The translations under genes were made by a program, and so were the position numbers. A model generated the notes under the pieces. It ran no database searches. It was not told the DNA's origin and saw only the letters and a program-made list of their open reading frames with translations. DNA of 64,000 bases from assembly GCA_965649765.1 (NCBI GenBank), contig OZ287751.1, forward strand, positions 96,038,001-96,102,000, written 5' to 3'. This DNA comes from Bispira polyomma (Eukaryota). Shown in pieces: positions 882 through 63,464 of this stretch (the first letter of the stretch is position 1; each line of letters begins with the position of its first letter).

Positions 882-1779
882 CCCCCAAGGCATATATTCT
901 GTAATATCACGAATAGCATCTTCTAGAGGATTATCTGGATGTTCAAAGGCAGCCATCAGCATTGTGTGTAGCTTATCCAGCATCTTGTCAAAAAGCTTAT
1001 TTCCCCTGCAAAAAAAACAACAAAAAAAACCCCATCAATTTAACTAAATGCCTCTGCAATGGTGGTTATGTTCTCACCCCTGTCTATTGGTTTGTAAGAT
1101 TACACAAAACCAACAGAACCATTTTGTTCAGACTTGGTCAAGGACCAGTGCATGGGCCAAGGATGAGTTAGTAATTAAGTAGGAGTGGAGTGCTTATATC
1201 TGCCAAAACACAACAGGGCCAAAAACTGACAATAAATTTCGTCAGAAAAAACTACTGAACCGGATTTGACCTAAGGGATTAGGCCATGGGCCAAAGGCAC
1301 AGCAGGGCCAAATTTTTTACACCCTTTTGAAGGGCAGATGTCCGTGGTGGAGAATGTGGTCTACTAAAATTTAATTATTTCGTCCTTAGCCTATGTCCAA
1401 GCCATTGACAAAGTTGGTAGTAGAAATTTATACTGCTCCATACACTAAATATTATTACTAATACACTTTACATAATTGATATAATCTTTTGATCTTACAC
1501 TAGATAGGGTCTAAAGACAGGTTTCAAGAATACAACTGCTTTTTTCCCAGATCGCTCAACTAGAATATAGAACTTTGAGTTTCTCTTTACCGATTTCTAC
1601 TTCACCTCACCTTTTTTATGCCATCCTAAATAAATTTAAGGATGATACTGCCACTGCAAAGATGTAGATTTCTAATTAGTTAAATTCATCAACCATAATT
1701 TTTAATTTGTGACTGTTTTGTCGTGAAATATGGAAAAGTTTACCAAGGTAAGATGCCCATACATACTACAAATGTTTTT

Positions 1780-1812
<33 letters not shown>

Positions 1813-7800: not shown

Positions 7801-9152
7801 ATTTTAAACTGTGGGGCTTTGGCGGAGGGATGCACCCTACTGAGTACTGTAGCATGACACATAAGTTAACGTGTTTAAATGTGTATCAAAATCTCTTGCC
7901 AGGTGTATCATTTTCAGTAATGGCAAACAAAATTTAATTGAAAGATTAGAAAGTGGTCTCTGCCCGACACCTTGCCTTATCAAGGGATAAATCATCTGGA
8001 GATTTCCTTTAGTGGAAGATCAACAACGAGGCTAAACAATGAGACTTTTAAGAGTAACATTAGAAAATTAAATTTTTAAAAATTTGTGAAATTGTTTTAA
8101 ATTTTCTTTTTGGCAAATTTAAGCCCGCGTAGCATTTAAGATATTAATAATTTTGATTTGATGTATTACATCAAAATGAAAGAAATACCTAGTAATTAAC
8201 ATCATTTTCTTTATTAAACACTAATTAGAGCCAAATTAGTTGTGATTAGTGGGGACATTAAGACACCAAAACAGTGCTCTTCTAGTTTTATTGTTTTTAT
8301 TATTTTCTTTTGTTTACAGTTTATGCCAAAAGGATTAAATTTAAACTAAAAGGGCTCCCTAGAAATATGTTCAGATATGATCCATTATACCATATTGGAG
8401 ACAGGGTCGTCATTTATAATGGTAATTCTATATAATGTGTTAGTGTTTGTCTGGCATTGATTTCCCACTATACTTTATCTCTATTCTAAATATTTGCTGA
8501 CAAATATAAGCCAAAGGATTGGTCAAATTTGTGGATCAACACTATATGCATGGAAAAAATTTACTCTGACGTAAATGGACTAGAAGTTAAGAATTTGCAT
8601 TCATAAAGTAAGAATAAGATAAAAATACGACTTTGTGTGGGAAAAGACTTTTATTCTATACCCAGTAAAATTATTCAACAAGCTGTATTTCTACACTGTG
8701 AAAACTCAAATTTGTTTTGCATAATTTTCTACTTTAACATACTTTGGCTTTGCACTGTAAAATAAATTAAAATTTTGTACAAAACCAATATTAAAACAAA
8801 ATTTTAAAATAATAGTACACATTATAAAATCCAAAAATAATATTTCTAGATCATAAAATATATACCCTTGCTTAACTAAACTACGGTCAACATCTACACA
8901 TATTACTGTAATTGATTTGGTAAATATAGCAAATACAAGTCACTATTCTCCAAAACTCCTTTAAATATCATCCACCCTCCCCTTTCTCACACTCAACAAC
9001 AATTTAGTAACATATTCTAATGGGATTTACCTTCCCTTTTTCAGTGCATCTTTAAAATCCTTCAGGCAATCTTCCTTAACTTTTTTACAAGTGCCGTAAT
9101 CCTTATCAACAGCCTCATTGATGGCCTCCACATATTCAGCAAACCGACCCAT
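882..9152 (-). CDS. Copy B (5' part, exons 1-4; the rest lies beyond the left edge): paralogue N-terminal helical region
   Basis: Exons 9031-9152 (MGRFAEYVEAINEAVDKDYG...), 6244-6361, 1820-1938, 882-1005. Phases match copy A exons 1-4, lengths are 122 vs 125/118/119/124, splice sites are canonical and the frame is open. Confidence 0.85.
2930..3720 (+). pseudogene. Harbinger (HARBI1-like DDE) transposase relic
   Basis: [48 protein letters not shown]...VDGDYRFVWFDIGYSGSCSDAQI and a RRxVENAF-like segment, with stops and frameshifts. Confidence 0.85.
4530..5660 (-). pseudogene. Harbinger partner (Myb/MADF-type accessory) ORF relic with a Q/P-rich tail
   Basis: ORF 5084-5521 ends in GGFFQYLVAGAEKLEEGDFQNFRNE, followed by T/A/S-rich and Q/P-rich coding-like sequence. 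It lies convergent to the nuclease. The assignment rests on position, since no Myb motif is visible. Confidence 0.5.
6874..7020. mobile_element. Short MITE
   Basis: GGCCATATTCACAAA ... TTTGTAAATATCAGCC inverted ends. A partial counterpart lies in copy A at ~40030-40090, and a related end TTTGTGAATACGGCCCC lies at ~46696-46712. Confidence 0.5.
7088..7560 (-). mobile_element. L2-group LINE 3' fragment with a (TAA)n tail
   Basis: Minus-strand LKKLHWLPIHHRI (~7480-7520) and AFSVATPLLWNSLP, with a tail at 7092-7106. Absent from the paralogous position in copy A. Confidence 0.7.
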
Positions 9153-20931: not shown

Positions 20932-21699
20932 TTATAACATGCAACATGAGGAGGATTTCTTTGGCTGATGCTGTGGCTCCTCATCATTTCTTGGTGTATT
21001 TGTTTTGTTGGTTTGTTCTTCTTTTTGTTTTTGAGATTTGTTATCAACAACTGGGGCTGCATCTTTTCCCTTCTTCTCTTCATTAACTTTTGTTCTGTTA
21101 GTTTGTTTATTCTTCTGTTGCTGGGATGCCTTTTCAACCACTGGGGCTGCCTCTTTTTCCTCCTCCTTCTCTTCATTCTTGACCACGCCAATAGTAGCTG
21201 TTTGATGTTTCTTTGTAACTTTTGCATTGTCTCCCTTTTTTGTAGGTTCAGAACGGTCTGCTATTTGTGGTATATGAGCCTGTAACTTTGCCTTTAGTTC
21301 TTCCAGCTGTGGGCAGTCCCAAGTATTTTGGATACTTACATCTGGACTATGGAAATTGATATACAGCAGTTGTGTAAAGACCATACTCATGGGACCCTCC
21401 GGGGGCCATGTCATCTTCTCCAGAAGAAGGGGTATAACTGGTTTCTTTAGAGCATCGGCCAGACTGACTTCTCTTCTACAATTAGCTGAAAATGTATACT
21501 TGGAAGTTACACAGGTCAGTACTACCTTGCAGCCACGAACTCCCTTATCTATCTTATCATACAGGGAATCTCCCCCACCCATTTGCAGGATATCTAACCA
21601 ACAGGTATAGCCTAACTGACTAAGTCTGTTGTAGAGGGCTTTAATCTGAGGCTGCTTGCCCCACTGGTAAGATATGAAGACATCAGGAGACTCTTCTTC
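20932..21699 (-). CDS. Terminal exon of copy A: second TIR domain, charged tail and CCaX motif
   Basis: [92 protein letters not shown]...KKSSSCCML*. Splice acceptor at 21700-21701. Confidence 0.92.
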   Translation of the reverse strand, partial: EEESPDVFISYQWGKQPQIKALYNRLSQLGYTCWLDILQMGGGDSLYDKIDKGVRGCKVVLTCVTSKYTFSANCRREVSLADALKKPVIPLLLEKMTWPPEGPMSMVFTQLLYINFHSPDVSIQNTWDCPQLEELKAKLQAHIPQIADRSEPTKKGDNAKVTKKHQTATIGVVKNEEKEEEKEAAPVVEKASQQQKNKQTNRTKVNEEKKGKDAAPVVDNKSQKQKEEQTNKTNTPRNDEEPQHQPKKSSSCCML

Positions 21700-24600
21700 C
21701 TACAAAACAATATGTGTCAACATGTAAGGAGATGATATTCGTTGATCAATTGCAGTTTATTATTGGTATAGAGTTACAGCAAGAAATAAAAATAACACAC
21801 ACTAACATCAGGCAAAACTGAATTAAACATCACTTACCTCTGTGTCAGTATTTCCTGCATTGACCACAGCTTTCCCACTGTCCTTCTCTTTGGGCTTAAA
21901 AATAATGATTTCAGCTGGTGGAGACATCCAGTTGACGTATGCTACAACAAACATTACAGTAATTTACATGCAACTTACATGTAAAGTTACAGTAACTCCA
22001 TCCCATTATTAAAATAACTGCCTAGCTTGTGCAATCTTTTCTTAAAAAAACACCACTATATATAAAGATTAGGATTTATCCTTAATCGACATTTAAGTTA
22101 AACATCAATCAATTGTATTGCATCATCAATTTTAACATGCCTTATTAATCCGCAGCATCAAGTGCAACAACAGAATCAATTGACCAATCAAGAGGTCCAA
22201 AAAAAAGGAATTAGGGTTTTTTGTCTAAACCCAGAAAATGCTTCTAGTATTCTAATTTCAACTGGGAGACTATTCCATAACATAGGGGAAGCAATTGAGA
22301 AGCTCTAGATCCAGCCCTCTTGGTAGGTTTTACAGAGGAACCAGAAAGACTCTTTACCCCCTCATGGTTTCTGAAAGAAAGTGGCGTAACAAGGTAGGGG
22401 GGCTGTTTAGAGGCCATATCTTTAAAAAATGGTTACATGGATTTTTTGAGGTATGGCAAAACACCAGTTTTACGTGAGATTTTTTTACCCAAAACAGAAG
22501 AGAATTGCAGTAGCTGAGGTGGCTACTTACAAGGGAGTTAGCCACAGTGATAGCAGCCTCTAATGATTTCTAATTCTTTTGATATTACAAATGTAATAGA
22601 TATAGGAGCGACAAATGTTGTTGATGTGTTGATCAAATGAGTAGTGAAGCCAATAGTGACAAAAAGGTTCTTGACATTATCAGAAGGTTGTAAATTGCCC
22701 AGTGGTGTAATGAGGTATAATGATCTAAGGGACTTGCTGGGTTTCCATGAAAATGATTTTAGTTTTTTTCAGGTTTAAATTTCAATTTGCAGTAATTGAT
22801 CCAAGACTGAAAAAAGACAGTAAGTAAACCTAAATGAGCAATTAATTATGTTAATAAGAGTTATAGGGATGTTCAGAAAATTCCATGAGAATAGTGTCAG
22901 GGATAGGATCCAGTTCAAAAGATTTATGAGTTTAAGAGCATCATTTCAGAAAGTGTGTGGAAATAGAGCAGATTAGAAACTGCGTAGCTTTGATGTCTAT
23001 ATGGGTTGTAACAAGCTCCAAAAAGTTTACATTTATCTAATATTAGTAAAATATGCCGCAGAAAACTCTGAAAACACTGCTGTCTGAGGGCGTTCTAAAG
23101 CTTGTATTACTGCATCTTTCTATTAAAATATGAAAATAGTAATGTTTTCTTGATTATAATTTGTCAATTTGTTAATTATCAAACGAAATGTATTATACCA
23201 TTAGATTTTCAAATAAATATACAACTTTAAAACTTGCAGTCAACAGAATACATTCATAGTTCTAAAGTACTACCTGCTATACTTACGGTTTTTGATGAGT
23301 TCCTCATTTGGTACCACATTATACCGTAGCTGCATCAGTAGCTCTTGCATCTTGGGCAGTGGCCAGTATCTATCATCCCCACTCTCTTCACCACCCCGAG
23401 TAAAGAACCGAATAAACAGGTACTCTCCAAAGATAGGGCCCATGGAACCTTTGGGTGGCCAAGGCATCTTCTCCATCAACAAAGGAATAATGGGTTTTCC
23501 AAGATTCACTGACAGATTGACCTATTATGTAATATACAAATCACAAGTTAAAATTTAATATAGCATACATTACACCCGTAATCCTCGAGTTGAACGATAA
23601 ATGGAGTAATGGAAATTTTTCGGTCTCCTACCTATAACTTGGACAACATCGCCCTGCTCATATGTTTTTGTGGTGTTTTGTAGTTCTGTAGACAATACCT
23701 GTAAACCTGTAGTTCATCATACGTTTGTATAGATGTATACTATCTGGTACTTTTTACAGAATAAAGGTTTATCATATAACAGCTCAGAAAGTTTAAGGAG
23801 TTACTTATTAGCTGGAATTACTCATAACAATTTACTTGTACTCAATTGTCCATAATAAAAACTTGGACTTGACCTTTAGCCTTTCATAGTTGTAAGTGAT
23901 ATTATATTAGAATCAGAGTAACTGATACCATAATTAATTAAAGCAAATTGATCAACTCTTAGGTTTCTAAATGCTCTAGCTTTCCAGTCCACCTTGAATA
24001 AGTAACAATCATCAGCACACTGTGATATAATCTACCATTTGGGTTGGGGAAAGCAGTACATACTTGTTGGTCAAGATTCAATACTAAAAATCACAAGGCA
24101 TTGGCAACTGACAACTTTCTGACATAAAGCCTCAACCAAGATTCCAACCGACGATTTCAGAGGTGGGAGGCGAATGGATGAACCAATACAGTGTCAGTGT
24201 TGGAATTATATATAAAACTTACATCATCAATGTAGTTAAACACAGAAACCATAGGATACCTAAAAAAGTAACAGTAAACGCAGCTGAAAAGACTTATGGA
24301 AATGCTTGAATAGTTTCTACCATAGCCATTATAAATTGTTCTCTTTCTGAATTAACAGATTCTTCAAACAAGCTTATTGATAAGCTTATTGATAAGGATT
24401 TTGGATGTACCTGATGTATCTGCTACATATGACACCATGACCTCCAGAACTTAAATATTCAATCACCAGAACTAATTCAATACTTTGCGCAGAATTAGAA
24501 TTACGACCTAACTAAAACGTAGCCTAAAAAATTAAACTTCAAACAATAAATGGTAGGCCGATTGCTGTAGAGAAGGATCCTTTTGGCCTGCCGGTCATAC

Positions 24601-27600
24601 TACATTTTAGGGCAAAGGAGACATCTGGCAACAGATCTGAACACAAAGGGGTATTTTCTGGGAGGGTCTCCTGTGGCTGGATATTATCTGCAACAAGAGC
24701 TAAAGGTTTTTTTCCGGAGGGTCTGATGTTGCTGGACAACATCTGCAACAATAGGGGTATTTTTCTGGAAGGTCCATTGTGGCTGGACAACATCTGCAAC
24801 AAGATGGGTATTTTTCTGGATGGTTTAATGTGGCTGGATAACATCTGAAACAAGAGAGGTATGATCTGACTCTAACTGGGTCAAGCTCGACCCCTATTAT
24901 GTTAACTTAAATATGTGAACTCAATTAGACAGAGCAGATAAGCAAGCAAGACAAGTAAACTATTGACATTTATTCACTGTGCACAAAATAATATTATTAA
25001 ATTACAAGACAATAAAGGGTGCACAAACTACAGCTAGTTAAAATCCATTTTTACGTTATACTAATTAATTCCTATCACCAATTATACTAAGATTCTACAA
25101 CAGTCCTAATACCTCAGAAGACTCTATTTTCTGCTAATAATTAAGAACCTATAATTATTATTATTATTATGCATTTTTGACGCGCTTTATTGATACTAGG
25201 CATCTTCTAAAGCTCAACAGCAGAATCAGTGATCCAATCATAAAGTCCATGGGCATAGCAAGGTTGTAAGGGTAAGGGGGTTAACAGCTGGTTAATCAGC
25301 AAGCAACCAGACTGGGTATTAACCCACCGCATAGCATCCTGCGGAAAAGGGCGCAACTTCCTTTCACGCTTCACATGGTGAAGGGTGCCATAACCAAAAT
25401 CTGTGAATATCTATTGGTAATTGACGGCTATGAGCAGCTAAATATTGTAATTATACAAAAAACAGGAGTAGGTTGAAACTACACATGTATTATAGGAGGT
25501 TACTGGCAGCTTTATATTGGCGGCTATATGGCTAGAAAATTTGCTCAGGTATATAGGAACTGGTTGGGACTGCTTTAGGCGGCTACTGATATCTATATTG
25601 GCGGCTATAGGCTGCTAATCCCTAAATATCTAGCTCTGGCTGTCTGTATTCAATTCTGAATACAAGAAATCACTGAGAAATCACTGGTTACCTTTCTTCA
25701 CTTTTCCTTTCTTCCTTGGTGGCTTCCTTGATATTAACTTTACAAATTTGTCTAACTTCTTTGAACTATATTTCTGTAAATGAACCACTAATCTTAAACA
25801 TGCACTTTAACATAAAAGGATAATTGATAATTGTCTTTTTAGAAATGTATGTATGTTGGTCGAAAAATGATCTTAAACATGACAAGATAATTCAATCTTA
25901 CATAGCTTCTCTGAAAGGGTATTTCTGTTGGTCAAACAATAGAATCCTATGAAACACTAAAAAATTTGATTGGAAAAGGCTTGTTGGTTAAATGATGCTT
26001 CAACAAATGCAGCTTTAGAAATTTTAAAATGACAGTTTTCAAAAATAAAAGGCCTTCAAGACTGCTTATTAATTCCTTTGGGATTGAGAGAAGCTAAACA
26101 ACGTTGGAATTATGATTTAAAAAAACAAAAAAACAGTTTAAACTGATAGATCATGGTGGGAAAATTCATTTTGATGGAACTAATCATTGGTTTGTCTGAA
26201 TAACACTGCCTAAAGAGGATAATATATACATTTTAGATTTAGCTGGATTTATTAACTTAACAGATTCAACTAAAATTCAAGTTTCAAAATTGTATTGTCA
26301 ACCACAGTACGATTATAAATTGATATTAATGTATGTTGTTTTTTGTAGCATAAATGTACATTGATAAAAACTTTTTGTGTGATGTAAAAAATATATATAT
26401 ATTCACTCAATTGTTTGCTTATCTCTTGTAGCTTCTATACATGGACCTTGTTATAGGGAGAACAGTGGTGTTTAAATGATCAAAAATCGGTTGATAAATA
26501 ACGATTTTAGGTAACTTATGGTGCAATCTTTGTTAAAGATATATATATATATATATATATTGGGCGATTTTTAGGCGATTTTTTTATCGATATATTATTG
26601 ATTATTTTACCCTTAAAATAAATAAAAGTATTAGAATATTTGTTTTATTAGGACAGAAGAGGATATTTATGTTTTATGTTTGATATTATTTCATACAAAA
26701 CTTAATGATGAATATGACGTCACCATCACCAAGATGGATATGTACGTCCACAGACAAATATTTCTTATTATTGTGCTCTATTATAGAATTAATGCTTAAT
26801 TTTATGAAATATACATGTGAGGATATAAAATTAAGCATGTGTTACAGTTTCTAATGTTCATACTGACATAAGGTATGTTATTTTGCTATATTTAACTCCA
26901 TTTGTGATGTAAACGGTATTATTGTTCAACTCGGAAACTGTTCAACTTGGGGAAGATGGGTGTAGTATTTAAAAAAAATAATACTGTAATGATTGGTGCT
27001 GCGAAACTATAAGTACATACATATGGTATACACCTGGTGTGGAGCACAACAAAACATCAGTAACCATGTGCATCAACATATTCTGTTCATATGTTGTATG
27101 TTGTATCCACACTTGCCTTGTCATGTTTAGTTTATATTGTTCAGGTCTGAAGCCACTCTAATACCAAAGAGTATTTTTGAAATTATAGGAAAAGCTTATA
27201 AACCAAAGGACTCTAGTACTGTTGCATATTTGAGCAGTGTTTTGCCAACAACCAGTAAAATATTTCCTCCAAAATTTGGATTTTTTCACTCAACTTTTTC
27301 ATCTTGCCAAATGTGGGCCTAGTTTTGCTGTCTGTGCTGTAGTAAGGTATCTGTAACTGTTTCATTTTCAGGTTTTCCAAATATAGAAATGTACAAAGGA
27401 TTACTTTACCTTCATTAGTTAATTTCAGTGTTAAAACTTTACCTCTCTGTTGCAATTTGGTGACTTAGCATACTTTTCAGACACACAGCAAATAATCACT
27501 TTGGCAGCACGGATACCTGTGTCTATCTTTTCAAAGAGTTTATCACCACCTCCCATCTGACCAATGTCTATCCACCTAGTGATGTTAAGCATACAAAAAC

Positions 27601-30600
27601 TGATATAAGTGGTAAAATATTAAGGTATATATTATTAAACATTAAATGGCAAAATTTTATTATATAATCAACTCTCATAAACAGGACTAAGAGCTGGTTT
27701 GGTGATTTCTTTATAGTGTCAAATAAATTAAATCTGGCTTACATGCTGCATTCATGCTACAGGCTAAATTTCTAAACTAACCCTTCAAAACCGGCCATTT
27801 CCAGGTGGTTTTTGAGCAGTTTTACTTCCTCCTGTAGACCCCACTGGTAACTGATGAACACTGGGGGAGGAGTGGCATACTCAACCTCCTCATCTTCTAC
27901 TACTTCTTCTGAAAGATCAAATAAGAAGACATTTTGGTTTTGCCAGCCACACAAAATAGTTATCTGCCACTTTAACATTTAGGTCTCAATCTTTACCAAC
28001 ATTGAATCACAAAATCTCTATAACTTTCAAAACATATCATACAGAACTTGTCACTATACCTCATATTTAAAGATGTTAATCTTTAACACCCCTTACCGGT
28101 TTGTTTCAGAGCATTTTCCACAATAACAAATGCATCCATTCTGTCCATTTCTTCTATATGTTTCAAAATGGCGTGTGTTGCTTCTCTTGTTTTGTTAGTT
28201 GCAAACCACTCATCAAACATGCTCAGGCATGGATTTGGCTGAGTTGCCCAGTTTCTGATGTCATCATTGCTGTAACCCAGTCTACTAGCCAGTAGACGCC
28301 AGTCGTGTTCGGTTTTTGGATTAAGAAGCTTTGAAACATCTCGTGACCAGATTGGGGCATGGCTTAGAGTCTAGATTGAAAGCAAGTATTGTAGTTTGGT
28401 AAATTATTTTTAATAATCAGATTACACTTGTAAAGCTCTACGAAAGGCATACAAATTTAACAAAAACTGAATCTTATTATTAGTTCAATACTTTAGGACT
28501 CATTGATAAAGACTAAAATGACTCAAACAAAGAATATTTGGTAATGAGAAAGTAGCAGATACAATGTAGATTTACTTCTTAAGAAATTACACTTAATTAT
28601 GATACATATCTTATTTTGACAAAATAAAATAACAACATAATATCCAAATTTTTTGCTTTTTCACCTTTTTGTCAATTTCTTCAACCTTTTCTATTGTCTC
28701 TTCAACTACATCTTCTAGTTCTTCCAGACGCTGGCCTTGATCATTTACCTCTCCAGACAAGGCCACTACTTCAGCTTTGGTGCAGTCCACCTCTTTCCCC
28801 AAGTTGGTCACATTTTCCTCTGTATTGGTAACTCGCTCATCCAGTTTTGTCACATCTTGTTGTACATCATCAACATCTTTGGCAACTGCTGCCAGACTAC
28901 AATACAGAATATAGACTCTGGGGACATATTATCAGAGTTAAATGTTCTATTCCACTTCAAGTTGAGACCTAACACAGTGTCTAATATTTCATAATCTCTA
29001 GTAGTTATCTATCCCACGTTTTAAATATCTGAATAAGTTTACTTTCGGTTTAATGTCAACACATCTTGACTTTGTCACATAGCGATGGTCAGTTCACTGG
29101 AGAAGGAAATCAGAGCAGGGTAGTAAGGTTTTCTTTTCTGCAGAAGCACTGGCTTTCAGCAATTCTGCTACCAATGTTCCCATATACATACCAGGGTAGA
29201 GATTCAACCTAGCTACAACTGCAGAGGTGTGTTACCACAATGCACCCTATATATTTCTCAACAACAAAGAATTATGTTATAGCCACCCTGAATGTTGGAC
29301 ATAACTAAATTGATGTGATAGATTGTGTTTAAGGAGAGTATTAGTTGAGAAATACAGGTTAATCTTTGAAGGTTACGGACTAAACCATCGGATAAAGGCA
29401 GGGTTAAATGGTCATAACTAAATTGGTGTGATATATTGTGTTCAAGGAAAGCTTTAAATTAGAAAGACAGTTCGAAGACAATACCTTCTTCCCGCAATGA
29501 CATCCAGGACTGCTGCAGCATGGTCTTTCAGCACTGTGTCATTTTTCAACTCTTCAAAAAATTCCTTATACTTGGCTAGTTCTTCCGGATATATCCCACC
29601 AATTGTCTTCATATTGTAAATCAAACCAATCATAAATGTTGAAGACTCACGGTTTCTAATGGCTTTCTTCAGGGCAGCTAGGTACTTGGTGGCTTTCTCC
29701 TGTGAATAAATTAATAAAATTACAAGAAATCGGGCAATCTCTGTAATACCTAATCAGCAATTCTACAGAAATTTACATTTAGGTCTTAATTTTACAAAAT
29801 AACCAGATGTAATAGTGGCGTAACTTTGACATCTAGAAAGGTTTCTTTAGAGTGTCTTTTGACTCTAAACCATTTTAGATAGAGAACACTTTTTATTATA
29901 AATTTTGATTGTAGTTATTTAGGTTGTTTGGGTGTAATGCTGCTCAATGTTTCAACACTTGCATCTTCTATCACAATGGACAATTTATTGGTAGAGGAAA
30001 TCAGTATTGATTAGTTGGTCAAAATTTCTGCTGCCAAATTTTCTACACGTGTGCCCAAGCCACTATCATATCTGCAGCATTTTGTCACAGTTCTGGCATT
30101 TTATTGCATTCATAGCATAAAAGTTTGGCTAGATTAAAACAATTCTCTGAGTTTTGCATCAACTGTTATATTTTCCATGTTTATCACGACCTATGGTAAT
30201 CCTGAAATATGGTTAGGCTACTTACTGCAGACTCCTCTGCCAGCTGCACCAATATACTCCCTCCCTGAGATGCCATATTTGCGACGGTCATCATGCAGTC
30301 AATGATTGTATCATCGTGAGGTAACAGCAATTTAGGACGTTTCTCAGAGAGTGGTGCAAGACTCATCACTGCGATGCCTGCAGTATGCTCCACTTTCACA
30401 GTGTCTATTATACGTTTCACACAGTTTGCTGTCATGGCCTGTATTATGTTTAAAATATAATTGCAGTAGTCAGTTAATGCTATAATCTAGTTTGTAACAT
30501 GATCAGTAAACATTTTAGAAGGACACCTGAAACTAGGGCCAATTTACAACAACACTACGAGACCCTTTTAGCAGCTAGAACTGGACAAAATCTGTTTACA

Positions 30601-33600
30601 AGCTCTATATCTTTGATACCTATATTTAGTTTGTATATAAATTCAAATTAAGGTCTCTTGAGATTCGCTGTAAATAATAATAATAATATAAGATATCAGA
30701 CTTTTTTAGCGCTTATTTTCGTTGAACAAATTATAGGGCGCAAAAAAACCACAGCCAGAGTCGAGAAACATAGGTGATAGACAGAAGAAAGTCGTCATCA
30801 ATGCATCCACGGAGAATGGGAAAGAGACTATGGAGGGAATGCATCATTGTGTACTTTGGACTTATATTTTGGAACAAGAAGTAATCTATTTTTGGGATAC
30901 AGTGAATTGCAGTAGTCCAGTCTGCTACCAACTAGAGCATTTGCTGCAGTTATTGCAACCGATTTTGGAAGGTACCTCCTGATTCTCCTAAGGTCTCTGA
31001 GACCTATGAAGCATGACTTACACATTGATTGGATATGACTGGAAAATGAAAAATCACTGTCAAACAAAACTCCCAGGTTCCTCACTTTATCAGTTGGGAA
31101 AAGCAGTGTCTCAAGAATGTTTACAGGAAAAGAATTTGACAGTTCAGCACGTTGTGTAAATATACTCGGTACACATATACTTTGTACTAAAATTTACTTA
31201 TATTCAAAATAAATCAAAAGCCTTGTACTCATAGCACATTATGACAACAAGAGTACTTACTGATGTAATATAAATTTCAATGAGTCAAACTTTTCCCAAA
31301 ATTTAATAATACATTGATTCATCAATATTTTAAACATTACTCTGAACAATGGTATATGAAAAGTATGTTTTCCAATAATATCTAAACTAACATCGCATTA
31401 AAACGAATTCATAATCTCTACCCTTGATTTGAAGGGCCAGTAAATCCCTCCTAAAAGTGTCTACATTATTTTAAGAATAGCAAATAAAATTCTAATTATT
31501 ACCAAAAAGTAAATAAAATATAGGAAAGTATGAACTTTACTGACAACAATACAGAAAATGGTCAAACTAACATCATATAGAAGTTACTGATCTTATTAGA
31601 ACTTGAAAGCTCTCAATTTCTAAACAGATTTTCAAAAATGACGCATCAATTAGTGAATATGTAAATACAACACAAATATAAAAACTGACTTTAAAATAAA
31701 AGACCAAGAGATTCCTTTCCAATACATTTAAAGATTTTTGCAAATCATGTTGACTATGCATTATTCTACAATATATTACAATACTTATTGTAATGATACA
31801 TAATTTATCCATATCGGTCCTGAAATAAGAATTTTACATAGACATCTATACACATCAATGAAAATGATATGAAGACATTTTTTGCCCATAACAACATGTT
31901 AGGGACACCCTGTAAAATACATGCAATATAAATTCTCGAGCCTCATCTTTCAGTTAGGGCAATCACTTGCTATCTTTAGTTAAGGCAATGACACCCACTG
32001 GTGGGCTGTATTAGGGAAGTCAAGAAAAAGTTCATTAGGCTAAGCACTTTTGATCAAAGGTAGGTAAATTTATATATAATATCATACAATTGACCTCTTG
32101 AGGTTTGGCCTAAAGAGATCAACTGTATTTGTACCTCAGGATGTTCCATACAGACTGTCTTGAAGAAAGAAACAGTACTTGATATAGTCCGGTTGGCTGC
32201 CCCTTCCATGTTCTCAGCTATGGCATCTAGATGGGGGTGAAACCTCTCTGGACTGTTCTTGTACATGGATTCAAAGTTTCCTGCAAAAAGGGCCATACTA
32301 TACTCAAACATGTGGCAGCTTTTCATGCATTTTAGGGTAACAAAAGAACCATGTCTGTATTCCACTCATAAACCCACACTGAAAGTCAGACTTCACTCAA
32401 CTTTAGACTATTTAGAGAAACCTAAGAATCGGCTTAGAAGTGGCTACATGACCTCTTATATTGTAATGGACAGCCCCCACTCTAAAAAGAGAGGGCACTA
32501 GAGAAAATTTCAGGGTATTTATTTTTTGTAGCCCTAAAGCCAATTTCTCTGATCTCATGCTGTTCTAAAATCACAGAGTGCTCTTCAAACATGTTCTAAA
32601 CTGTAACTGGAAGTTGCTACGTATAGTAATAACCATATCAGTTAGTGTCTCTTTCTTCAAGTACTCACTAATAAGGGAGGGTTCCTCTCCACTCAACACT
32701 CTCTGAATCAGTTTGTCCGTGGTGTCAACACTAAGTTCTGCCACCAGATTACCAGGCATCATGGTCATAAGGTTGTTAGCATCTCTCCTCAGAATTTCTT
32801 CATCACATTCCCAAAGTTCTTCACAAGCTTTAAACACAGGTTCAATGATTTCTTTGGTTTGCCTGTGCTAAAATATAAATTAAAAAAATGCAGGATGTAT
32901 ATATGTACTCAATGAAACTGAAGTGACAGTTAGTTCAGTTCAACAAGTACAGAGGTACAGTGTAAAATACCTGAAAAATGTTTCTTTAAATTTTATAATA
33001 CCAACTGTAGAAGGTACAGCATAAAGTGAGGACAGATAATGTAAACCTACAGAGATTGTGTATCACCTAATAGGATTTTAAATAACAGTACAGTAGGTTG
33101 GAAAACAGACTATATTATTTTAGTATTCATAACAATTTTGCTGGTGTATATTAAAATAATTATGAAAGATAGGTTATTCATTTCCTTAATAAAGTTAGTA
33201 ATACATGTATTAACATAGAGAAAGGTAAGAATGGGTCCTTTTCAGTTGGTATATTACCAGTTGTATTAACATACTATGTGTTTGTTATATTATTTATCAT
33301 ATGTGTTTTTCTTCAATTTCTTTCAAAAGTAAAACATTTCCATTTTAAGTACAGTCAGAAGTGTGAGGTATACCTCAAAACAATACCCCAAGTCTTAATC
33401 TTTGTTTTGGGGAAAAAAAACAAAAATTAATGGTATAGTTTTATTGGCATTCAGGAACATAATAGAACAATGCCAGAATTAAATAACAGTATTAAGGTGT
33501 TGTCTGCGAATTGTAAAGGTTTGAGAACACTTAATATGCGAGTAGATGTTTAGAACTATTTAAAAAAGCTGGTGCCACTATTGTATGTTTACACACATAA

Positions 33601-34900
33601 CTGAAAATAATGATGATATTTAGATTTACAGTAGATAGCAATCAAACATAAAAACTTCAATGAGACACATTGTAATTAAAAAAGGTTGAGATATAACAGG
33701 AAATATTCTAGAATTACAGTGAATAAAGTGACTAATTAATTCATTTTCTTGATTATTTGTTTTCTTTTAGCTACATGTTTGTAACAAAGCAGTGACTGGT
33801 AATGTTTGTTGGTGTTGAGTTTGCCTTGTTCAGGAGTTAAAGCATGTTTATGAAAACACAGCTTTGGCATTACAGGTAGAAGAATCAGATAGCTGAGGTG
33901 TTGTGGTGTGCATTCTACTGCCTGTTAAAAACATACCGTGCATAGATAATTTTCCAGGCACTCCTTCAGCCAGCGGTAGATAACTGTTCGTTCTTTTGAA
34001 TCATCTTCATCAATCCATTCCTGATCTTTGGCCCAATTAAATATCTTAGCAATGTGATCTTTGTACTTGACTGCTTGCTTTTTGTTGTTCCTAAAATCTC
34101 AAATATTTAAAAAATGTGCATTAGTGGGTGAATAAGTTATCTTGATAAACAGTTATTAAACTATAAGACAACATTAAAATGTATATTAAGAAACAGGTTG
34201 TATCAAAAGAGTGTGATTGAATGTAACATAAATTCTGATATGACAGGTTAGTATTATCAAGTTTGTTGCTGTGTATGCCATAAAGATATAACTATTCTTG
34301 AATGAAAAGTTCAAGGAGCTATTTAAATAATTTAAAAACAATAAAAAGCATATCACTAACTATTGAAAACAAATGTTTTCATCTGATTATATTTAACTTA
34401 AAAAGGTGACTGATTTGTTGCTCATTGCTCTTAAATCATGTGAAACTAGACTTTCTTGACTTGACTTGACTTTGTAAAGAGTTACTGGTGCTGAGAAAAG
34501 TTTCTATTTGGACAGAGAGGACTGGCTCAATTCACATAGTGGAATTTTAATAACTTTGTGAATGGTAGATAAGGATAAAATACAAAGACTCTAGAGTCAG
34601 TCTGTGTTAAAATGACTATATAAAGGATTATTATTATTATTTTTTTAAATTTAAAAAAACAGTTTATTCTCCCTATTAAATCATTTATCAGAGACCCTGT
34701 GCCGAGGGAAGAGGTTGCAACCCGCTCACAGGGACTTCACAAAAAACTGCACCTCACAGGGTGACATCACAGAAAAATTATGATAAACATATTTAACATA
34801 CATGTATAATCAATTGTATATATAAGCCTGACATAATACATCCACATGATTTTACCAATATATAAAAATATATTACAAAGTACATATGTGTGTATTACTG

Positions 34901-34936
<36 letters not shown>

Positions 34937-37900
34937 TAGATAGATAGATATGTAAAAAAGTGGCCAAATGTTTTTTTTGTTGATAATTCTGAAAGTTTAC
35001 ACATGCTTTATTGTGAAAATATTACATATTTTGTCTTTGTATACATTTAACAACACAATACTTTTTCTATCTTCTAAAACTAGTTTAAATACATTGGTAT
35101 AAAACAGTAAGTATTTTATGATATTTTGTTTAATATTAATTTCACTATAGTTTGTTTTTTAAATACTACATTTCATCCATTGACTGTAAATAGTGTACAT
35201 TACAATAACTATTATAATGTTACCTACTATCAGGGATTATGTGCTGTAATGCTATAAGTAATAATATTTTACCACTGGTCAGTATATACTTAGTAGTATC
35301 TATTTGTGTCTGAGTTTAGTTTCAGTTTAACAGCGTTTTCCACAGGTCTTATGTCATATCACGACAGGCAGTTGATTACTGCAGGCATCAAAGCAAGATA
35401 GATTGTCAATGCTTTTTACTGCCAACTTCCCCACATACGTGTCAGGCCAGACATTAGAACCCATGACTGCAGTGGGGGAGGCACATGTGTTACCATTACA
35501 CCATCAGAGCCCCTTTAAACATTGAAAACATTAACATCTAAACACCTTTGTAAGAGTATATAGTGTATGCTGTAGAAGGCCATTTCAATATTCGGACCTT
35601 TTCAAAACGGCAACCTGGGACCATTTCAACCTCAATGATTTTAATGTCGAAATATAATAGGAGTCATAGGTAAGCCTATACCCAAGCTTTATATCCCTGA
35701 CATAATGCAATAGTTGTACATTAATTAAATATTTGACTAATTTGTTGCTCTTTAGTCTACTTTATAAAGCCCTTATACAACAATGCATGCACAGGTCTAG
35801 TGAGTTTTAAGCTTAATTAGTTCATCATCAGCTGGGTGTCCACCCTGAATAGAGTGATATTTACAAAAAACGGCCCCCTGGTGTCGATTTCTGGACACAC
35901 AGAAGACAGACAAGCAGAAGAGTATTCGATTGTAATTGTAAAAGTAAAAATATTTACTACCAATTACTTCTAGCTTTTTGCAGCTAATGAGTTGGAATAG
36001 TAAAAAATAAGTCCAAGTTAAAGTTTAAATTGTCAAAATGGCCTATAATGCACATTAATCTTAGTGAACTACTCAGAAATTGTAAAATGTCTTTCGCAGT
36101 ATTACTCACATGCAATCTCCATATATAAAGAAAAATGCGCTGTTAATAAAACGTGAGGTTCTATCACCAGATTTCATTTCTGGCCTTTGTTTCATCACCT
36201 CAAATGACTTGTCCATGAATTCCAAAGCCCACTCTGTATTTTGCTGCAATTAACCACAGAAGAACAACAATAATATTACATGGTTAGTTTACAATAGGAA
36301 AATTGCCTGAGTGATGCATATTTTAAAATTTGGTCACGAGAAGACAAATCAATACCATCTCATATAGACTCGGCTGATAAGGTTTGTCTTCTCAAGCGAT
36401 ATAATTTTAGTGCTTCTTTTTACAAAACAGAGAGCTACGAAATGCCAGAATTAAATGGCTGCAATCTATGTTACGTTCATACTAAACTAAAATCTGTGGT
36501 ATCTATATATTTGATCAGAGCAAGTATTCCATGTTTTAATTTCCGCATTTAAAAATCCTCGACCCAAATTCTGTTTAACCCTCAGATTCAATTTGCTTTA
36601 GCAATACTCAGCCTGGGTCAGTTCTGTATCTTGTCCTAGGATAACACCCCCAAGTAGTAAACTGCATATCATCATCACTAAATACGAATGAACTATCAAA
36701 CTCTTGCAGCACTTTATTTCTATACAAGTAAAGTCTAAAGTGTCATGAAATGAGAAAGGTTTGAGTGCATCATAAACCCTTAACATTGCAAAAACTCCAA
36801 AACACAATACAAGATATACCTAAGGATAGACTTGGGGGTAGAAGAAGCTTTGTAATATTAGAAGGCTTTGAGCTTGGTTCTAATAGTACAAAAAGAATGT
36901 TGAATTATTCTACATATCACTGGAAATATTATCATCAGCATTCTGATGTGTACATGTCTAATATACAATGCATTGACATAGATTACCCCCCAAGGCAGAT
37001 ATCTTGTGACATCATAAGTAGCATCTTGCAGTGGACTCTGTGGATGTTCAAATGCAGTCACCAGCATTGTGTGTAGTTTATCTAGCATTTTCTCAAAAAG
37101 CTGATTTACCCTGTAATTGATAAATAATTGAACTAATTACATCCGCCAAGAAGGTTGGTTGGTTAAGGGCTTGTGCATGGGCCAAGGATAAGATGATCAA
37201 AACTTTGGTGGAGCGCTTAGTTCAGCCAAAGCAGTACAGGGCCAAAAGGTGACAATACATTCCTCAAGAAAAAAACTACTGAACCAAATTTATCGGAGTT
37301 TGTGGAGGGCTAGGATATGTTCCCAAAAAGAAACCATAACGTTTTATTGTAATGCATGCCTCTGCCAAGGCATAACAGCGCCAAAAAGTAAAGAAAATTT
37401 GACTCTGAGGTGACTTGGCGAAAGCACTTTAATGGTTTCTTGCTTGGATCATGTCCTAGCCCTCTACAAAGTTTGTGTTAAGTACCACATGTCAGAAGGC
37501 AATACCTGCAATTCATTGGTACACGTTGATACTGTCCATATTGTAAATATTGGTTTAATACACTTTACTTAATGGATATAATCATAAAATCCTACATCTT
37601 TCTCTTTAATCGTCCTTATAGCATACTGAATTCTTTTAAGGATGATACTGCCACTGAATTTGTTAAATTTATTTGTCAGAAATTTAAATTTTGTGACTGT
37701 TTGACCAACTTTTGTCTTGGAATGTAGAAATATTACAGTGAATGAACCAGTTGTATGTGTTGTTTTAAGGGCTTACCTAAGGATATCAACGACTTTGTTC
37801 AATAAATGATTAAAGTTTAAGTTTGCCTTTGGGACAGGTTCTTTGCCATGTTCTGTTATACTGTCAATAATCTCACCCAACAATGCTTCATGTTGCTGTA

Positions 37901-40900
37901 AAACAAGATAACATACTTCTCTACTATACCTGCACTAAACAAAGAAGTACGTAATATCAACAAAAAGAATGACACAACACAGATATTGTGACTAAAAGCT
38001 ACAAAAACTGAAAAAAATGCATAAAAATATCAAATAGACTAAAATAATTGATGAAATATGCCCAAAGTGGCTGTCTCACTATCCCAATAATAGCTCCCGA
38101 CCGTCCCAATTGTACAATCGGGAGAACAATCGTATCGATCGGGATCAATCGTAAGCTGCTAAAAAGTTATCTTAACCTTATAGCGACCTATCTTTCCGAT
38201 CGACATCGAAATCGGGAGAAAAAAAATAGCTATTTTAATTGTTCAATCCCGAAAAAACCCCGACTGTAAAGATAAGTCATTACCAAGTTCCCGATTGTAA
38301 AGATAACCCGGGAGGAGCGGCCGATAAGTCATTATGAAGTCCCGACTGTAAAGATAGGCGTCAATTGTAAGCTGTTAAAGAGTTATTTTAACCTTATAAT
38401 GACCTATCTTTTCTATGGGCATCTAAATCGGGAGTAAAATTTGCCATTTTGAAAAAGATTAATCGTCCAATCCCTCCCGATAGGTTGGGAACACCCGTCA
38501 GATTGGTCGGGAGCATTACGAGTTATCATCTACTTTTCCCGAGTTATCCTGTCAAAAGGATAGGTCTTTAGAAATGCCCAGAGTGTACCCAGCGATACCT
38601 CGGACAGTGAGGTGAAGGCCTTCAATAGGAAACCGAAGAAGGGGAAGATAAGGACATAGGTCTCTGTAAACAGCTGAAACCTTCTTCCAGTCCTCTGGGG
38701 TGGTGGGGCAGCAGAGAAATTGGCAGCGAGGTACTGGCCTATTAGGGATGAGAATGACCTATCGGGGAAGACAACGACCTATCTTTATGATCGTAACATG
38801 TTGTCCTCACTTATCTTTGTCAATCGGGAGGATTCTTTTGGGCAAAATTCCCGATCTGTCCCGATCTATTAGTCCTTGCTCCGGACCTTTCTTTACAATC
38901 GGGAACCATTATGATTATAGTTTTGGGACGTAAAATTTCCCGCCCTTTTTTCCAAAATCGTGGCAAAATGCTTAAGATTGCTCTCGACCGCATTATCAGG
39001 GTCTCCTCCCGATTGGTCGGGATAGTGTGAGAGCAGCTTAAATGAAAAGAAAGAAGTAAACTAGTATTACTAATATATGTCACAGCACTGCTATTTTTTA
39101 TATCAATGAGTCCTCATATAAAATAATCTAAAAAGAGATAATACCAAACCTGTTGAGGACACTATCTTTAAAATAGACTACATTTCTACACTTTAATTGC
39201 AAGTGAGTACTCTATTTTCAAAGAGGTTACACTTATTTACGTCATAACAGATATATATATGCACATTAAATAACTGTTGTAATTTAAATTTGGCACCCCA
39301 CAAATTAAACTCGATTTCCAAAGAGTGAAGACTGATGTGGACATTAACCTATACACACAGACTTAAAACCCTTGGTAGATATGTCATAATGTAGAATAAT
39401 TAAAAAAGACAGTTTTTTAATGCAGATAGGTTTATTAAACTTATGGTCAGAATTATACATATTTTTTGATATTTTCTGCTTTTTACAACAGAATGAATTG
39501 GGTGGAATTTAAAACGTTATGAGGAATAACAATGTTAATAGCACTAATAATACACAGTGTGTAAAAATGTTCTTGGAGGGCTTAGATAAACATTGTATAT
39601 ATTAACAGGAAGATTTACGAAGTACCAGTTCATTCTATACCGACTTGGATATGTTAAAGTTAGTATATCAGTAATTTTTTTATAAAGTCTATATTCCCAT
39701 TTGATCAAACTTCAGTATCCACTAAAGACATTGATTTAAGACTTTTATATTCTGAATGACAAAATGAGTAAAACTTTGTTAAAATTGAAAGAAAAGATAT
39801 TAAATGACACAGATTTTACTGGATATATTTGGCATATTGATAAGTTTTACCTTCCATTTATATATCTTCCTGGTATCCACTATGGCAACAGCGAAAAACA
39901 CTATGTTTGGAGTTCCATTTCTAATGCAGGTAAACAGGATGACCTTGAGTTCTTCTATGTCAGCCTCACTGAAATGAAAACACAAACATAGTGTTTTAGT
40001 CTCAGCCAGTTAGACTCTTTGAAACAATATTATCAGCCAATCAAATTGGTTTAGAGAAATAGTTATGATTTTCTTGTGAATACCATCCTTTATCTTCCAT
40101 CACAACAGCAATATAACAGTTATATATGGGTTAAATGCGGCTAATAATATAACAGATATATAGGGGTTAAATAAGGCTAATAGAGTTAGATATATAACAG
40201 ATATACATTGGTTAAATATGGCTAATAATATTACAGATATACATTAGTTAAATGAGGCTAATAATATAACAGATATACATGGGTTAATGAGGCTAATAAT
40301 ATAAGATATATATGGGTTAATGAGGCTAACAGAACCAGATCTAGAGACATGGAGCATAAAATGTGCACTTGACTTCACATTCATATTTACTTGGTTTGCC
40401 TTATATGTTTTTACCTATGTCTGTGAGTCGGTTTATTGGTTTGTCACCAAGAATACACATCTATTTATAAAACCAATTTAGATGAAATTAGGTGAACAGA
40501 TGGGTCATTGGCTAAGGAAGAATCCATTACATTGTGGAGTGGATGCAGGGAGAAGGGCCGATTCAGGATTTCTTTTTACCATGTTGGGGACTGTAGAGCC
40601 TTGGTTGAGGTATGTACTCTACTGAGTACTCTTCCAGTGTAACATGTTGGGGACTGTGGGGTTTGGTAGAGGTATGTACTCTACCGAGTGCTCTACTAGT
40701 TTAACATGTTGGGGACTGTGAGGCTTTGGTGGAGGTATGTACTCTACCGAGTGCTCCACTAGTTTAACATGTTGGGGACTGTGGGGGCATTAGTGAAGGT
40801 ATGTTTTTTACTGAGTACCTGACTAGTTTAACATGTTGGGGACTGTGAGGCCTTGGTAGAGGTATGTACTCTACCGAGTGCTCTACTAGTTTAACATGTT

Positions 40901-43900
40901 GGGGACTGTTGGGGCATTGGTGGAGGTATGTACTTTACTGAGTACCTGACTAGTTTAACATGTTGGGGACTGTGAGGCTTTGATGGAGGTGTGTACTTTA
41001 CTGAGTACCCGACTAGTTTAACATTTGGGGACTGTAAGGCCTTGGAATAGGTATGTACTCTACCGAGTGCTCCACTAGTTTAACATGTTGGGGACTGTGG
41101 GGGCATTAGTGAAGGTATGTTTTTTACTGAGTACCTGACTAGTTTAACATGTTGGGGACTGTGAGGCCTTGGTAGAGGTATGTACTCTACCGAGTGCTCT
41201 ACTAGTTTAACATGTTGGGGACTGTTGGGGCATTGGTGGAGGTATGTACTTTACTGAGTACCTGACTAGTTTAACATGTTGGGGACTGTGAGGCTTTGAT
41301 GGAGGTGTGTACTTTACTGAGTACCCGACTAGTTTAACATTTGGGGACTGTAAGGCCTTGGAATAGGTATGTACTCTACCGAGTGCTCCACTAGTTTAAC
41401 ATGTTGGGGACTGTGGGGGCATTGGTGAAGGTATATTTTCTACTGAGTGCTTATCTAGTTTAACATGTTGGGGACTGTGAGGCCTTGGCGGAGGTATGTA
41501 CTCTACTGAGTGCTCTTGTTGGCATTGATTTTCTACTGTATATGTACAAAATTCCTTGCCATATGTGTTGATCCGGTCAAATTTGTGGATAAATTGTATG
41601 TATGCAACAAATATACTCTGATCTCTTATGTCAATGGACTAAAAATGTTTGCACATTTGCACTTATAAAGTAAGATTATTATGAACATATTACTTTAAGT
41701 GGGAAACACTTCTTTTTCTATGTATATAGTTAATGAGCCGATCACACAGTAAGTAGTTTAACTGTTGTTTTTCTATCAACTATTATAACAAACTTCAGCT
41801 TTGCACTCTGAAATAAATTTAAAAATTTATAATGACAAATGTTAAAGGCTGATCTTACCAAGCACTGGTGGAAGATCGTTACGGAAAAAATACCATAAAA
41901 TTTTGTAAAAGATTATCGGTTTTGGCTACAGCTCTACATTTATTTATTACTATTTATGATTTTTCTACCTCTTTTACATTGATTTTGTCTTATTTTGCTG
42001 TTCTATATTGTGAATTTACCTAGAAACAATAAATACCCTGTTATTGTCCACTCTGTTTAGCAGGAGTGGTCCGTACTCTACATTTACTTATTACCACTAT
42101 GATATTTTTACCCCTTTTACATTGATTTTGTCTTATTTTGCTGTTCTATATTGTGAATTTACCTAGAAACCATACATACCCTAATATAGTTCACTCCGTT
42201 TGGCGGGAGTGGGCCGTACTCTATATTTATTTATTACCATTTATGATTTTGGCGGGAGTGGGCCGTACTCTACTTTTACTTATTACTATTTAGGACTTTC
42301 CTACCCTTTTACATTGATTTTGTCTTATTTTGCTGTTCTATATTGTAAAGTTTACCTACATACCATAAATACTCCAATATCGTTCATTCCGTTTGGCAGG
42401 TACTCTACATTTATTTTGTAAAAGATCGTTGGTTTTGGCTACATCTCTACATATATTTATTACCATTTATGATTTTTCTACCCCTTTTACATTGATTTTG
42501 TCTAATTTTGATGTTCTATATTGTCTCTTTCAAATTAGTCTCATTTTTATGTTGCTACATGTTGGTGTGGTTGTACTTAGCTTAAGGTCATGCTATAGTG
42601 TGGGGTGTTAGGGTGCCTGTGAGTTGCCCACAGGACGAAGAATTGTACGATGACTTGTAGGGACATATTTTCTGAGGCTCCCCACTGTTGAGTTCAGTTT
42701 AAGGGTTTCTTCTTTTCTACAACCTCACTAGTCATGTTTTTCCTTCGGGTTGTCCTTTTTAGCGCTGTTTGCAGTGGCTATTGCTTATAGGTATGAGTGG
42801 TTGCATCCCAGAGGAGCTCATACATCTGCTACCTCATTGGCTAAAGTTACAAAAAAATTTTGGATCTCATTTGATCTCCTTGTGATCAGGATACTATTGT
42901 GGATCTCAGTCTGCAATTTCATATCGGATCTTGCATTAGTCAAATGCTCAATTGTTTCTCCCAGACAGGTGGCTCATATTCCTAATACAGTGCATTATAG
43001 GAGGTACCACCGTATAATCATGTCTGACCTCCGCACTGATCTCAAGAAAACTTCCTTCGTTAAGTCACCAGCCAATTCTGTAGCTAAACTTTATAAACAA
43101 TACATACATGACTTGGGTGATGTACTAGATAAGCATGCACCACTTGTATCTAGAATGTCAAAGACAGATTCTGTACATTGGCTTTCTGCTTCATACTGTC
43201 GGGAAAAGTCTTTCAGGCGCCAATATAAAAGAACTTGGCAAAGGGCCAAGAACCCATTGAATAAAAGTCGACTTCGTCGCCAGATTACTCGGTGCATTGT
43301 ACTTGTTAACGAGGATAAGTTGGAGTATTATAGCAAACTTATCTCCGACAACAGTCACAACTCCAGGAAGCTATGGCACAAACTGCTCAAGATCCTTAAT
43401 ATAGATACCAATGTGGCACTCACGTCCCATGAATCCGATAAGTCACTAGTTGACAAGTTTGCTCCCTCTTTTTTTTCTAACAAAATTAAGAGAATTAGAG
43501 ATACTTTTGTTGTTTCTGGAACTAAAATTGATGTTCATCCTCTTTCTGATCCTCCAGAAATTACTGCCTTTACCAGAGTCTCTGAAGATGATGTTAATAA
43601 AATAATTAGTAACTCACCTACAAAATCCTGCATGTTGGATCCATGGTCAACATCTCTCATCAAAGAATGTGGTGATAAATTACTCTCATCTATTACAAAG
43701 CTTGTAAACTGCTCACTTACTGAGGGACATGTACCTGATGGTTTTAAAACAGCTGTGGTTACTCCTCTTATTAAGAAGGCTTCTCTTCCAGTTGATTACC
43801 TAAAGAATTATCGCCCTGTATCTGGTCTTAGTTTCATATCAAAACTGGTTGAACATGTGGTTGCTAAGCAACTGTTAGATCATATCCTTGTCCATGACTT

Positions 43901-52558: not shown

Positions 52559-52568
52559 CTGTTAACTT

Positions 52569-63235: not shown

Positions 63236-63464
63236 CTGTTAAAAATATATCATCATAACAAGACACCATACAATTCCTGATTAGCACTGCATTATGGCTT
63301 GTAATTCTTGTACATAGGTTGGCATAGGATTTAAAAAAGCAGCATTTATAACTAGACCTAGTGCATCTGAGAACCGGTGCATATTTGTATCCACCAAAAA
63401 AACAAAGCACCATAGGTAGCAAGCATCTTAGGTAGCAAGAACCCTAGCTGGCACCCAAGCTAGG

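Follow-up and report, generated by a model that had tools for sequence, protein, structure and literature searches.

In a 64,000-nucleotide window of the Bispira polyomma genome (contig OZ287751.1, here C4, 96038001-96102000), we identified a gene, copy B, whose predicted product carries two tandem TIR domains (TIR1 and TIR2) behind a helical-repeat region, a coiled coil, and a Death domain. Comparison with its homologs suggests, at about an even chance, that this protein is a prenylated, membrane-tethered hydrolase of nicotinamide adenine dinucleotide (NAD+) that stays off until clustered and releases linear ADP-ribose (ADPR), with TIR2 essential and TIR1 providing the partner face. That the TIR pair performs some catalysis dependent on its αC glutamate is quite probable, a judgment that sums over all enzymatic readings. 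The idea of an NAD+ hydrolase (NADase), raised from the sequence, is a fair bet, and the family is a strong candidate to add a lineage to the TIR NADases of animals, of which the available parts of the papers cited here name SARM1/TIR-1 and oyster TIR-STING.

The window is AT-rich, and the genome measures 1.04 Gb. Copy B (20932..45202) is a predicted, intact minus-strand gene of 17 exons, built from the sequence, that runs from the ATG at 45202 to the stop at 20932. Its exons join into a single open frame of 1,139 amino acids (aa) with GT-AG boundaries at 16 of 16 introns; the exon 7 donor and the exon 9-10 junction, both in the N-terminal half, were picked among open alternatives. Reads from three sequencing runs extend across the introns without spliced junctions, so that they look like DNA. 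The encoded order is HEAT/ARM-like solenoid, coiled coil, Death, TIR1, TIR2, disordered tail, and CaaX box. Motifs, Pfam, and the gene model assign to TIR1 exon 13 (27782..27908; like all features of this gene, on the minus strand), which encodes FISYQW of βA together with αA, and exon 14 (27443..27575), which spans the BB loop to αC and has the codon of Glu771 (27445-27443) as its last. The next residue, Val, is encoded by exon 15 (23287..23521), assigned by motifs and alignment, which covers βD to αE and includes Trp792 of the WPP motif, aligned with the Trp of SARM1 WPEP. Exon 16 (21838..21941) encodes the linker in the gene model. TIR2 occupies 21262..21699 of a single exon (21699-20932) and holds FISYQW, a GDSL BB loop, the αC motif with Glu961 (21471-21469), and Trp982; the residues four positions before the two glutamates (E-4) are Asn767 and Asn957. 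Pfam TIR_2 (PF13676) matched the TIR2 exon at E 1.3e-22 and the middle TIR1 exon at E 4.1e-9. An original prediction made from this DNA had stated that both TIRs keep the αC glutamate and an intact FISY box; E771, E961, and the two FISYQW motifs bear this out, and the copy C motif was read too.

The same prediction had equated the αC glutamate with SARM1 E642, and our alignments agree. When a profile of TIR2 paralogs was compared with the PDB, this residue fell on the SARM1 HKE glutamate (E642), FISY on FISY, the WxD Asp on the BB-loop Asp, and WPP on WPEP; TIR1 in turn aligned with TIR2. Both glutamates are present in 120 of 120 listed homologs, a list that is score-ranked and hence biased toward intact TIRs, and in all nine tandem copies, a retention not attributable to chance. 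In AbTir the active site is composite: across the BE interface, one TIR contributes the Glu and BB loop and its partner the adenine-side Trp, and AbTir requires G174 and S176 for activity (Manik et al., bioRxiv 2022.05.07.491051; here and below, statements from the literature follow the available portions of the cited papers). The GDSL BB loop of TIR2 is identical in the alignment to the AbTir GDSL with these essential residues, which counts for the NADase reading. By sequence alignment, the BB-loop WxD and GDSL/GDKL and the partner-face WPP are kept in the TIRs, and both halves of an AbTir-type site, the Glu/BB-loop side and the Trp side, are conserved in TIR1 as well as in TIR2. The top-ranked PDB sequence neighbors of the TIR2 profile, PdTIR, AbTir, SARM1, Cat1, and SPARTA, are mostly enzymes. 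In the structural comparison, the TIR fold of a homolog model best matched SPARTA TIR-APAZ (Z 17.0; root mean square deviation [rmsd], 3.7; 151 aligned), and Foldseek with a full-length homolog model returned SARM1/TIR-1 as top matches, by domain order and not by superposition (rmsd about 30).

The two TIRs do not appear to be equivalent. Among 172 proteins with two scorable TIRs, 147 carry Glu in both, and 24 have lost the TIR1 Glu and kept that of TIR2 (23 to Gln, 1 to Leu), a tally that should not be read as a frequency, since the first 120 proteins were score-ranked and 18 of the 24 belong to one deliberately searched clade; the remaining protein, P0152, shows an apparent TIR2 loss that we rejected as a gap in the gene model. 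The TIR1 WPP is retained in all 24. Their match to the TIR1 consensus was 64% in βA/AA, 66% in the BB loop/αB, 30% in αC, 92% in βD, and 78% in DD-to-βE, compared to 98, 97, 78, 89, and 83%, respectively, in 28 other divergent proteins that keep the Glu. TIR2 of the Glu-less-TIR1 proteins shows the mirror trend, WPP being YPx in 15 of the 22 with data. In a midpoint-rooted tree of Death and TIR2 (81 rows: one in four of the first 120 proteins plus every later one, with P0152 and TIR1 excluded), four changes were needed: three TIR1 Glu losses and one Glu-bearing protein inside a clade from environmental assemblies. The independent losses, counted by lineage from a protein-by-protein listing, lie in a bdelloid paralog group, in the environmental-assembly clade, and in two hemichordate proteins. 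Among the clade-13 tandem proteins of the TIR atlas (Culbertson et al., PMC13142454 / bioRxiv 2026.04.30.722052), at least Salpingoeca punica P003033 and Lottia P005540 have the Glu only in the second TIR, and others keep it in the first. The one-sided loss of the TIR1 Glu with the WPP face kept points to a directional site in which TIR2 would be the catalytic half and TIR1 the supporting partner face, an oligomer still being needed. The "twin" enzyme of the original prediction is weakened by this pattern, as relatives repeatedly lose the TIR1 Glu and not the TIR2 Glu.

A single site arises from each BE-type TIR pair, and two from the four TIRs of SPARTA (bioRxiv 2023.07.14.549122); AbTir and SPARTA depend on inter-strand contacts as well (PMC8635717). 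A covalent TIR1-TIR2 pair would thus complete no more than one site by itself, most likely the TIR2 pocket closed by the TIR1 WPP face, and retention of the TIR1 Glu in most lineages implies longer strands. As for the product, the cyclizing TIRs in Manik et al. all have an aromatic residue at E-4 (bioRxiv 2022.05.07.491051), and SPARTA, with Gly at that position, is active and yields linear ADPR (bioRxiv 2023.07.14.549122). Asn occupies E-4 in both copy B TIRs and in 372 of 403 TIR domains from 250 proteins, so that the mark of TIRs forming cyclic ADPR (cADPR), an aromatic E-4 in WxxxE, is absent from both. These residues make linear ADPR, that is, NAD+ depletion, more likely than cADPR signals under a rule derived mostly from bacterial TIRs. 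The original prediction had proposed an NADase that either depletes NAD+ or makes cADPR-type signals; its NADase part gains from a pocket kept beyond the Glu, and its cADPR part is weakened.

Nine tandem copies of the gene lie on C4 at 95.81-96.30 Mb, and both αC glutamates and the CaaX end are present in 9 of 9. Simple pairwise counts among copies A, B, and C gave ratios of nonsynonymous to synonymous substitutions (dN/dS) of 0.04 to 0.14 for Death, TIR1, and TIR2, 0.15 to 0.27 for the coiled coil, 0.28 to 0.36 for the inner HEAT part, and 0.40 to 0.68 for codons 1 to 206. Purifying selection on the two TIRs is strong (dN/dS, 0.05 to 0.14), and the N terminus is fast-drifting, a pattern as in sensor-effector immune genes.

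Exons 1 to 10 (29485..45202; aa 1-515) encode the helical-repeat, HEAT/ARM-like region, the most variable part of the protein. A profile of aa 1-515 from 90 homologs matched HEAT proteins in the PDB (2DB0, E 2e-10), β-adaptins, CAND1, and importin β. A homolog N terminus was modeled as a confident helical solenoid with ARM and HEAT structures, both kinds, as its structural matches, and in the ESM Atlas a homolog N terminus gave leads of the HEAT type, at about 0.90 only. Exon 11 (28665..28896; aa 516-593) shows the heptads of a coiled-coil stalk. Beta-branched core residues in coiled coils favor trimers; two core positions are beta-branched at 71% and 73% across 105 of 120 homologs, and the stalk likely forms a trimer. 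Exon 12 (28097..28370; aa 594-684) encodes the Death domain (PF00531, E 6.1e-11), whose closest match among solved sequences is the death domain of p75NTR. The TIR1-TIR2 linker spans 48 to 65 residues in 110/120 homologs measured.

A C terminus of Cys-aliphatic-aliphatic-X is the CaaX prenylation signal. The low-complexity tail of copy B (20932..21261) ends in KKSSSCCML, the last four residues being CCML. Cys stands at -4 in 106 of 120 homologs (X is Leu in 85), as in the nine tandem copies, in contrast to 18 Cys per 13,235 residues in the rest of the homolog tails; Lys or Arg lies immediately upstream of the terminal motif in 104 of the 106. The conserved motif predicts prenylation and a membrane location. 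Neither the CaaX box nor the HEAT sensor-like region figured in the original prediction; both are additions of the follow-up. Three Haliotis proteins (P0041, P0056, and P0062) have lost the CaaX tail and carry NGIRE for NCNRE in TIR1, and may be soluble variants. A start of the form MG..C is myristoylation-like. Choanoflagellate, ctenophore, and cnidarian clade-13 Tudor-TIR-TIR proteins often begin this way (PMC13142454), and lipid anchoring may recur across clade 13.

In the mechanism that we propose, the prenyl anchor would concentrate the protein on a membrane, and the HEAT region, by analogy with the SARM1 ARM domain, would act as sensor and autoinhibitor, holding the enzyme off until a trigger arrives. 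The coiled coil and Death domain would oligomerize in place of the SARM1 SAM domains, gathering at least six TIRs. These would form a head-to-tail BE strand of alternating TIR1 and TIR2, with the TIR2 BB loop and Glu meeting the TIR1 WPP face; the TIR1 Glu would be active only in longer strands, its pocket closed by TIR2 of another chain. The outcome would be NAD+ loss, with cell death or stress signaling in immunity. A broader version, which we hold to be less probable than not, sees the family as SARM1-independent guard-type receptors of immunity, single-chain and prenylated, encoded by variable tandem arrays in most invertebrate bilaterian phyla, whose diversifying HEAT region trips the trimeric stalk and Death domain at the membrane, whose alternating TIR1/TIR2 strand destroys NAD+, and whose TIR1 has in some lineages become a pseudo-enzyme partner. 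Plant paired sensors have likewise been turned into pseudo-enzyme partners.

Several observations weigh against the proposed hydrolase. The SARM1 AA-loop Arg-Arg is Gln-Trp here and its αC Trp is Asn, and loss of the αC Trp lowers SARM1 activity and abolishes that of L6 and ROQ1 (bioRxiv 2022.05.07.491051). Hydra TRR-2 (Z 16.6), SARM1 (15.3), and MyD88 (15.0) stand beside SPARTA in the fold search, whose score cannot split enzymes from scaffolds. Dictyostelium TirB and TirD keep the Glu, yet no NAD+ cleavage was seen in the available account (PMC13142454), in keeping with the caution in the original prediction that the Glu alone does not prove activity. Single-chain AlphaFold models (P0001 and P0030) are confident for the domains but not for their packing (predicted template modeling scores, 0.49 and 0.45), which tempers the earlier idea that the covalent pair pre-assembles composite sites, as does the limit of one site per pair. 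The direction of Glu loss rests on three events, a one-sided outcome with a chance of 1 in 8 that is not significant alone, and the hemichordate event, with its two proteins, has both TIRs diverged. In the sea-cucumber model P0177, TIR1 is intact and TIR2 is degenerate and lacks a part, and P0231, P0232, P0238, and P0243 are without TIR2 in models that may be truncated. Finally, pairwise dN/dS gave no positive or diversifying selection on the N terminus, all values being <1.

The missing αC Trp, the TirB/TirD precedent, and the MyD88 and TRR-2 folds that score as high as enzymes also fit a scaffold-only, MyD88-like adaptor, in which the Death domain would recruit IRAK/Pelle-type kinases, the TIRs would nucleate or join TIR filaments at a membrane, and the Glu would be structural. 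The Death-then-TIR order is that of MyD88, and the Aplysia orthologs LOC101850562, LOC101855561, and LOC101858605 are filed as MyD88-like, with an Armadillo-type fold noted (PMC9334734). We nonetheless consider such an adaptor unlikely: the orthologs fall in atlas clade 13 and not in clade 1 with MyD88 and TLRs (PMC13142454), the PDB sequence neighbors are mostly enzymes, and loss of the TIR1 Glu is accompanied by decay of βA, the BB loop, and αC while the fold-forming βD stays, as expected of a functional pocket.

It is also improbable, in our judgment, that the protein is a signal-making enzyme with another product (an ADPR conjugate, a base-exchange product, or a 2',3'-cyclic nucleotide monophosphate [2',3'-cNMP]) read by a partner. 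Cys at E-3 matters for 2',3'-cNMP synthesis in plant TIRs, and it is kept in 395 of 403 family TIR domains, but Gly replaces it in TIR1 of three Haliotis proteins. The family has invariant pocket residues of its own, unlike those of studied TIRs (SYQW, QMGGGD, and NCxxE), and the atlas authors, who describe clades 10 to 13 as widespread and uncharacterized, expect new chemistry there (PMC13142454); however, the precedent for a nonaromatic E-4, SPARTA, yields plain ADPR (bioRxiv 2023.07.14.549122). A self-sufficient covalent pair with two equal sites, possibly making cADPR-type signals, would suit the retention of both glutamates in the array and in most homologs and a linker long enough for a cis pair, but we regard it as very unlikely given one site per BE interface, the dependence of AbTir and SPARTA on a second strand, the Asn where cyclases carry an aromatic, and the one-sided Glu loss. 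The reading that we prefer is the clustered, directional NAD+ hydrolase.

Judged by its members' sequences, the Death-TIR-TIR family is real, intact, and ancient; it has already been catalogued. Of 482 candidate proteins, 345 pass E 1e-20 (120 listed), from molluscs, annelids, echinoderms, hemichordates, and amphioxus, and further searches add bdelloid rotifers, a flatworm, a leech, a nemertean, and the clade from environmental assemblies. No vertebrate, insect, nematode, or cnidarian members were seen among the named tandem matches listed (120-150 rows). The closest named TIR2 match among those listed is a Capitella protein (81%), other named animals reaching 62 to 74%, which by itself points to a host that is probably an annelid or another spiralian; Lottia proteins are 63 to 67% identical to TIR2, and Lottia rows of the atlas share the copy B-type αC motif. 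Death-TIR-TIR orthologs from Lottia, Crassostrea, Strongylocentrotus, and Branchiostoma are Clade_13 in the atlas, a label taken from the paper's table (62 of 103 Clade_13 rows plus 4 motif rows) and not from a tree of our own. Tandem TIRs are common in clade 13 (Tudor-TIR-TIR, ROCO-TIR-TIR, and TIR-SAM-TIR-TIR; PMC13142454), and TIR pairing itself is therefore not unusual there. In the literature, judged mostly by titles and the starts of abstracts, we found no functional study of the HEAT-Death-TIR-TIR family or mention of its CaaX. The available parts of PMC8195603 and PMC6321704 hold nothing specific to this Death-TIR-TIR family, and those of the atlas make no statement on its HEAT region, CaaX, product, or asymmetry (PMC13142454). 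Gerdol et al. in 2017 (PMID 28109746) reportedly classified invertebrate ecTIR-DC families and may have included a name for this one.

Two other array members reach into the window, both on the minus strand. Copy C contributes its 3' half (exons 10 to 17; 57277..63263, by motifs and gene model), its 5' exons lying outside, and copy A contributes exons 1 to 4 (882..9152, by gene model), the remainder, including both TIRs, preceding the window. Intron 1 of copy B holds a 465-aa open reading frame with a weak RVT_1 match (42732-44129, plus strand), likely a LINE-type retrotransposon fragment, and some 15 copies of a tandem repeat of about 63 bp (40575-41516). Between copies B and C lies a decayed retrotransposon (51600-55650, minus strand) with reverse transcriptase and RNase H-like domains, in a layout that we take to be reminiscent of DIRS elements. 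Related TIRs occur elsewhere in the genome. On C3, L013:4912-6474 encodes a single TIR of the same type with one intron and the Glu kept (SHYCNREL), resembling the TIR of a Neuralized-Roc-COR-Death-TIR family with a CaaX-like end (P0226), and L014:4588-5163 encodes a related TIR whose catalytic position is occupied by Asp (SDNCMKDL) and whose BB loop contains a poly-Gln insert, likely a pseudo-enzyme paralog. On C12, L012:4788-5285 is a diverged, single-exon TIR2-like frame with the Glu kept, Cys changed to Ser, and the CaaX end CVIQ; the 20 kb upstream of it yielded neither a TIR1 nor a Death exon.

The family offers a concrete, cheap case for asking whether clade 13 is enzymatic, and natural Glu-less TIR1 variants, such as Rotaria P0283, serve as built-in controls. 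The predictions made here are sharper than the original one: linear ADPR, unequal glutamates, oligomer dependence, and membrane anchoring. If they are true, the genes of molluscs, annelids, echinoderms, and amphioxus filed as "MyD88-like adaptors" would encode cell-death-type enzymes, with a bearing on farmed-shellfish immunity and on the evolution of NAD+-based defense in animals.

Among known systems, SPARTA TIR-APAZ and AbTir are the best fold and sequence neighbors of the family TIRs. SPARTA likewise has no cyclase aromatic and makes linear ADPR, and AbTir shares the GDSL BB loop with TIR2; both differ in being bacterial, with one TIR per chain and other sensors, and AbTir has W204 and makes 2'cADPR. 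MyD88, like copy B, has a Death domain N-terminal to its TIR, but this is a single clade-1 TIR without NADase activity, as is the TLR4 TIR (PMC7282519), and MyD88 has no HEAT region, stalk, or CaaX. The ROCO-Death-TIR sister family (for example, Octopus LOC106875913) shares a related Death-TIR module, an NxNCxxE-type αC with Glu, and a CaaX-like end, but has a Neuralized-Roc-COR N terminus and a single TIR. SARM1/TIR-1 resembles copy B in its helical solenoid, oligomerization module, and Glu-bearing TIR, with the catalytic Glu, BB-loop Asp, and WP Trp aligned. By sequence, the copy B N terminus looks more HEAT-like than like the SARM ARM, and its solenoid matches both HEAT and ARM proteins; in place of SAMs, copy B has a coiled coil and a Death domain, and it further has two TIRs, a CaaX tail, and multigene tandem arrays, with Asn for the αC Trp and Gln-Trp for Arg-Arg, and the orthologs lie in clade 13 and not in clade 8 in the available atlas data. 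Pfam found Death and TIR but no SAM domain in the 5 of 5 Death-TIR-TIR homologs scanned or in the scanned window exons. The copy B protein would work like SARM1, but, having no SAMs and a TIR of another clade, it is not a SARM1 member, nor is it a MyD88.

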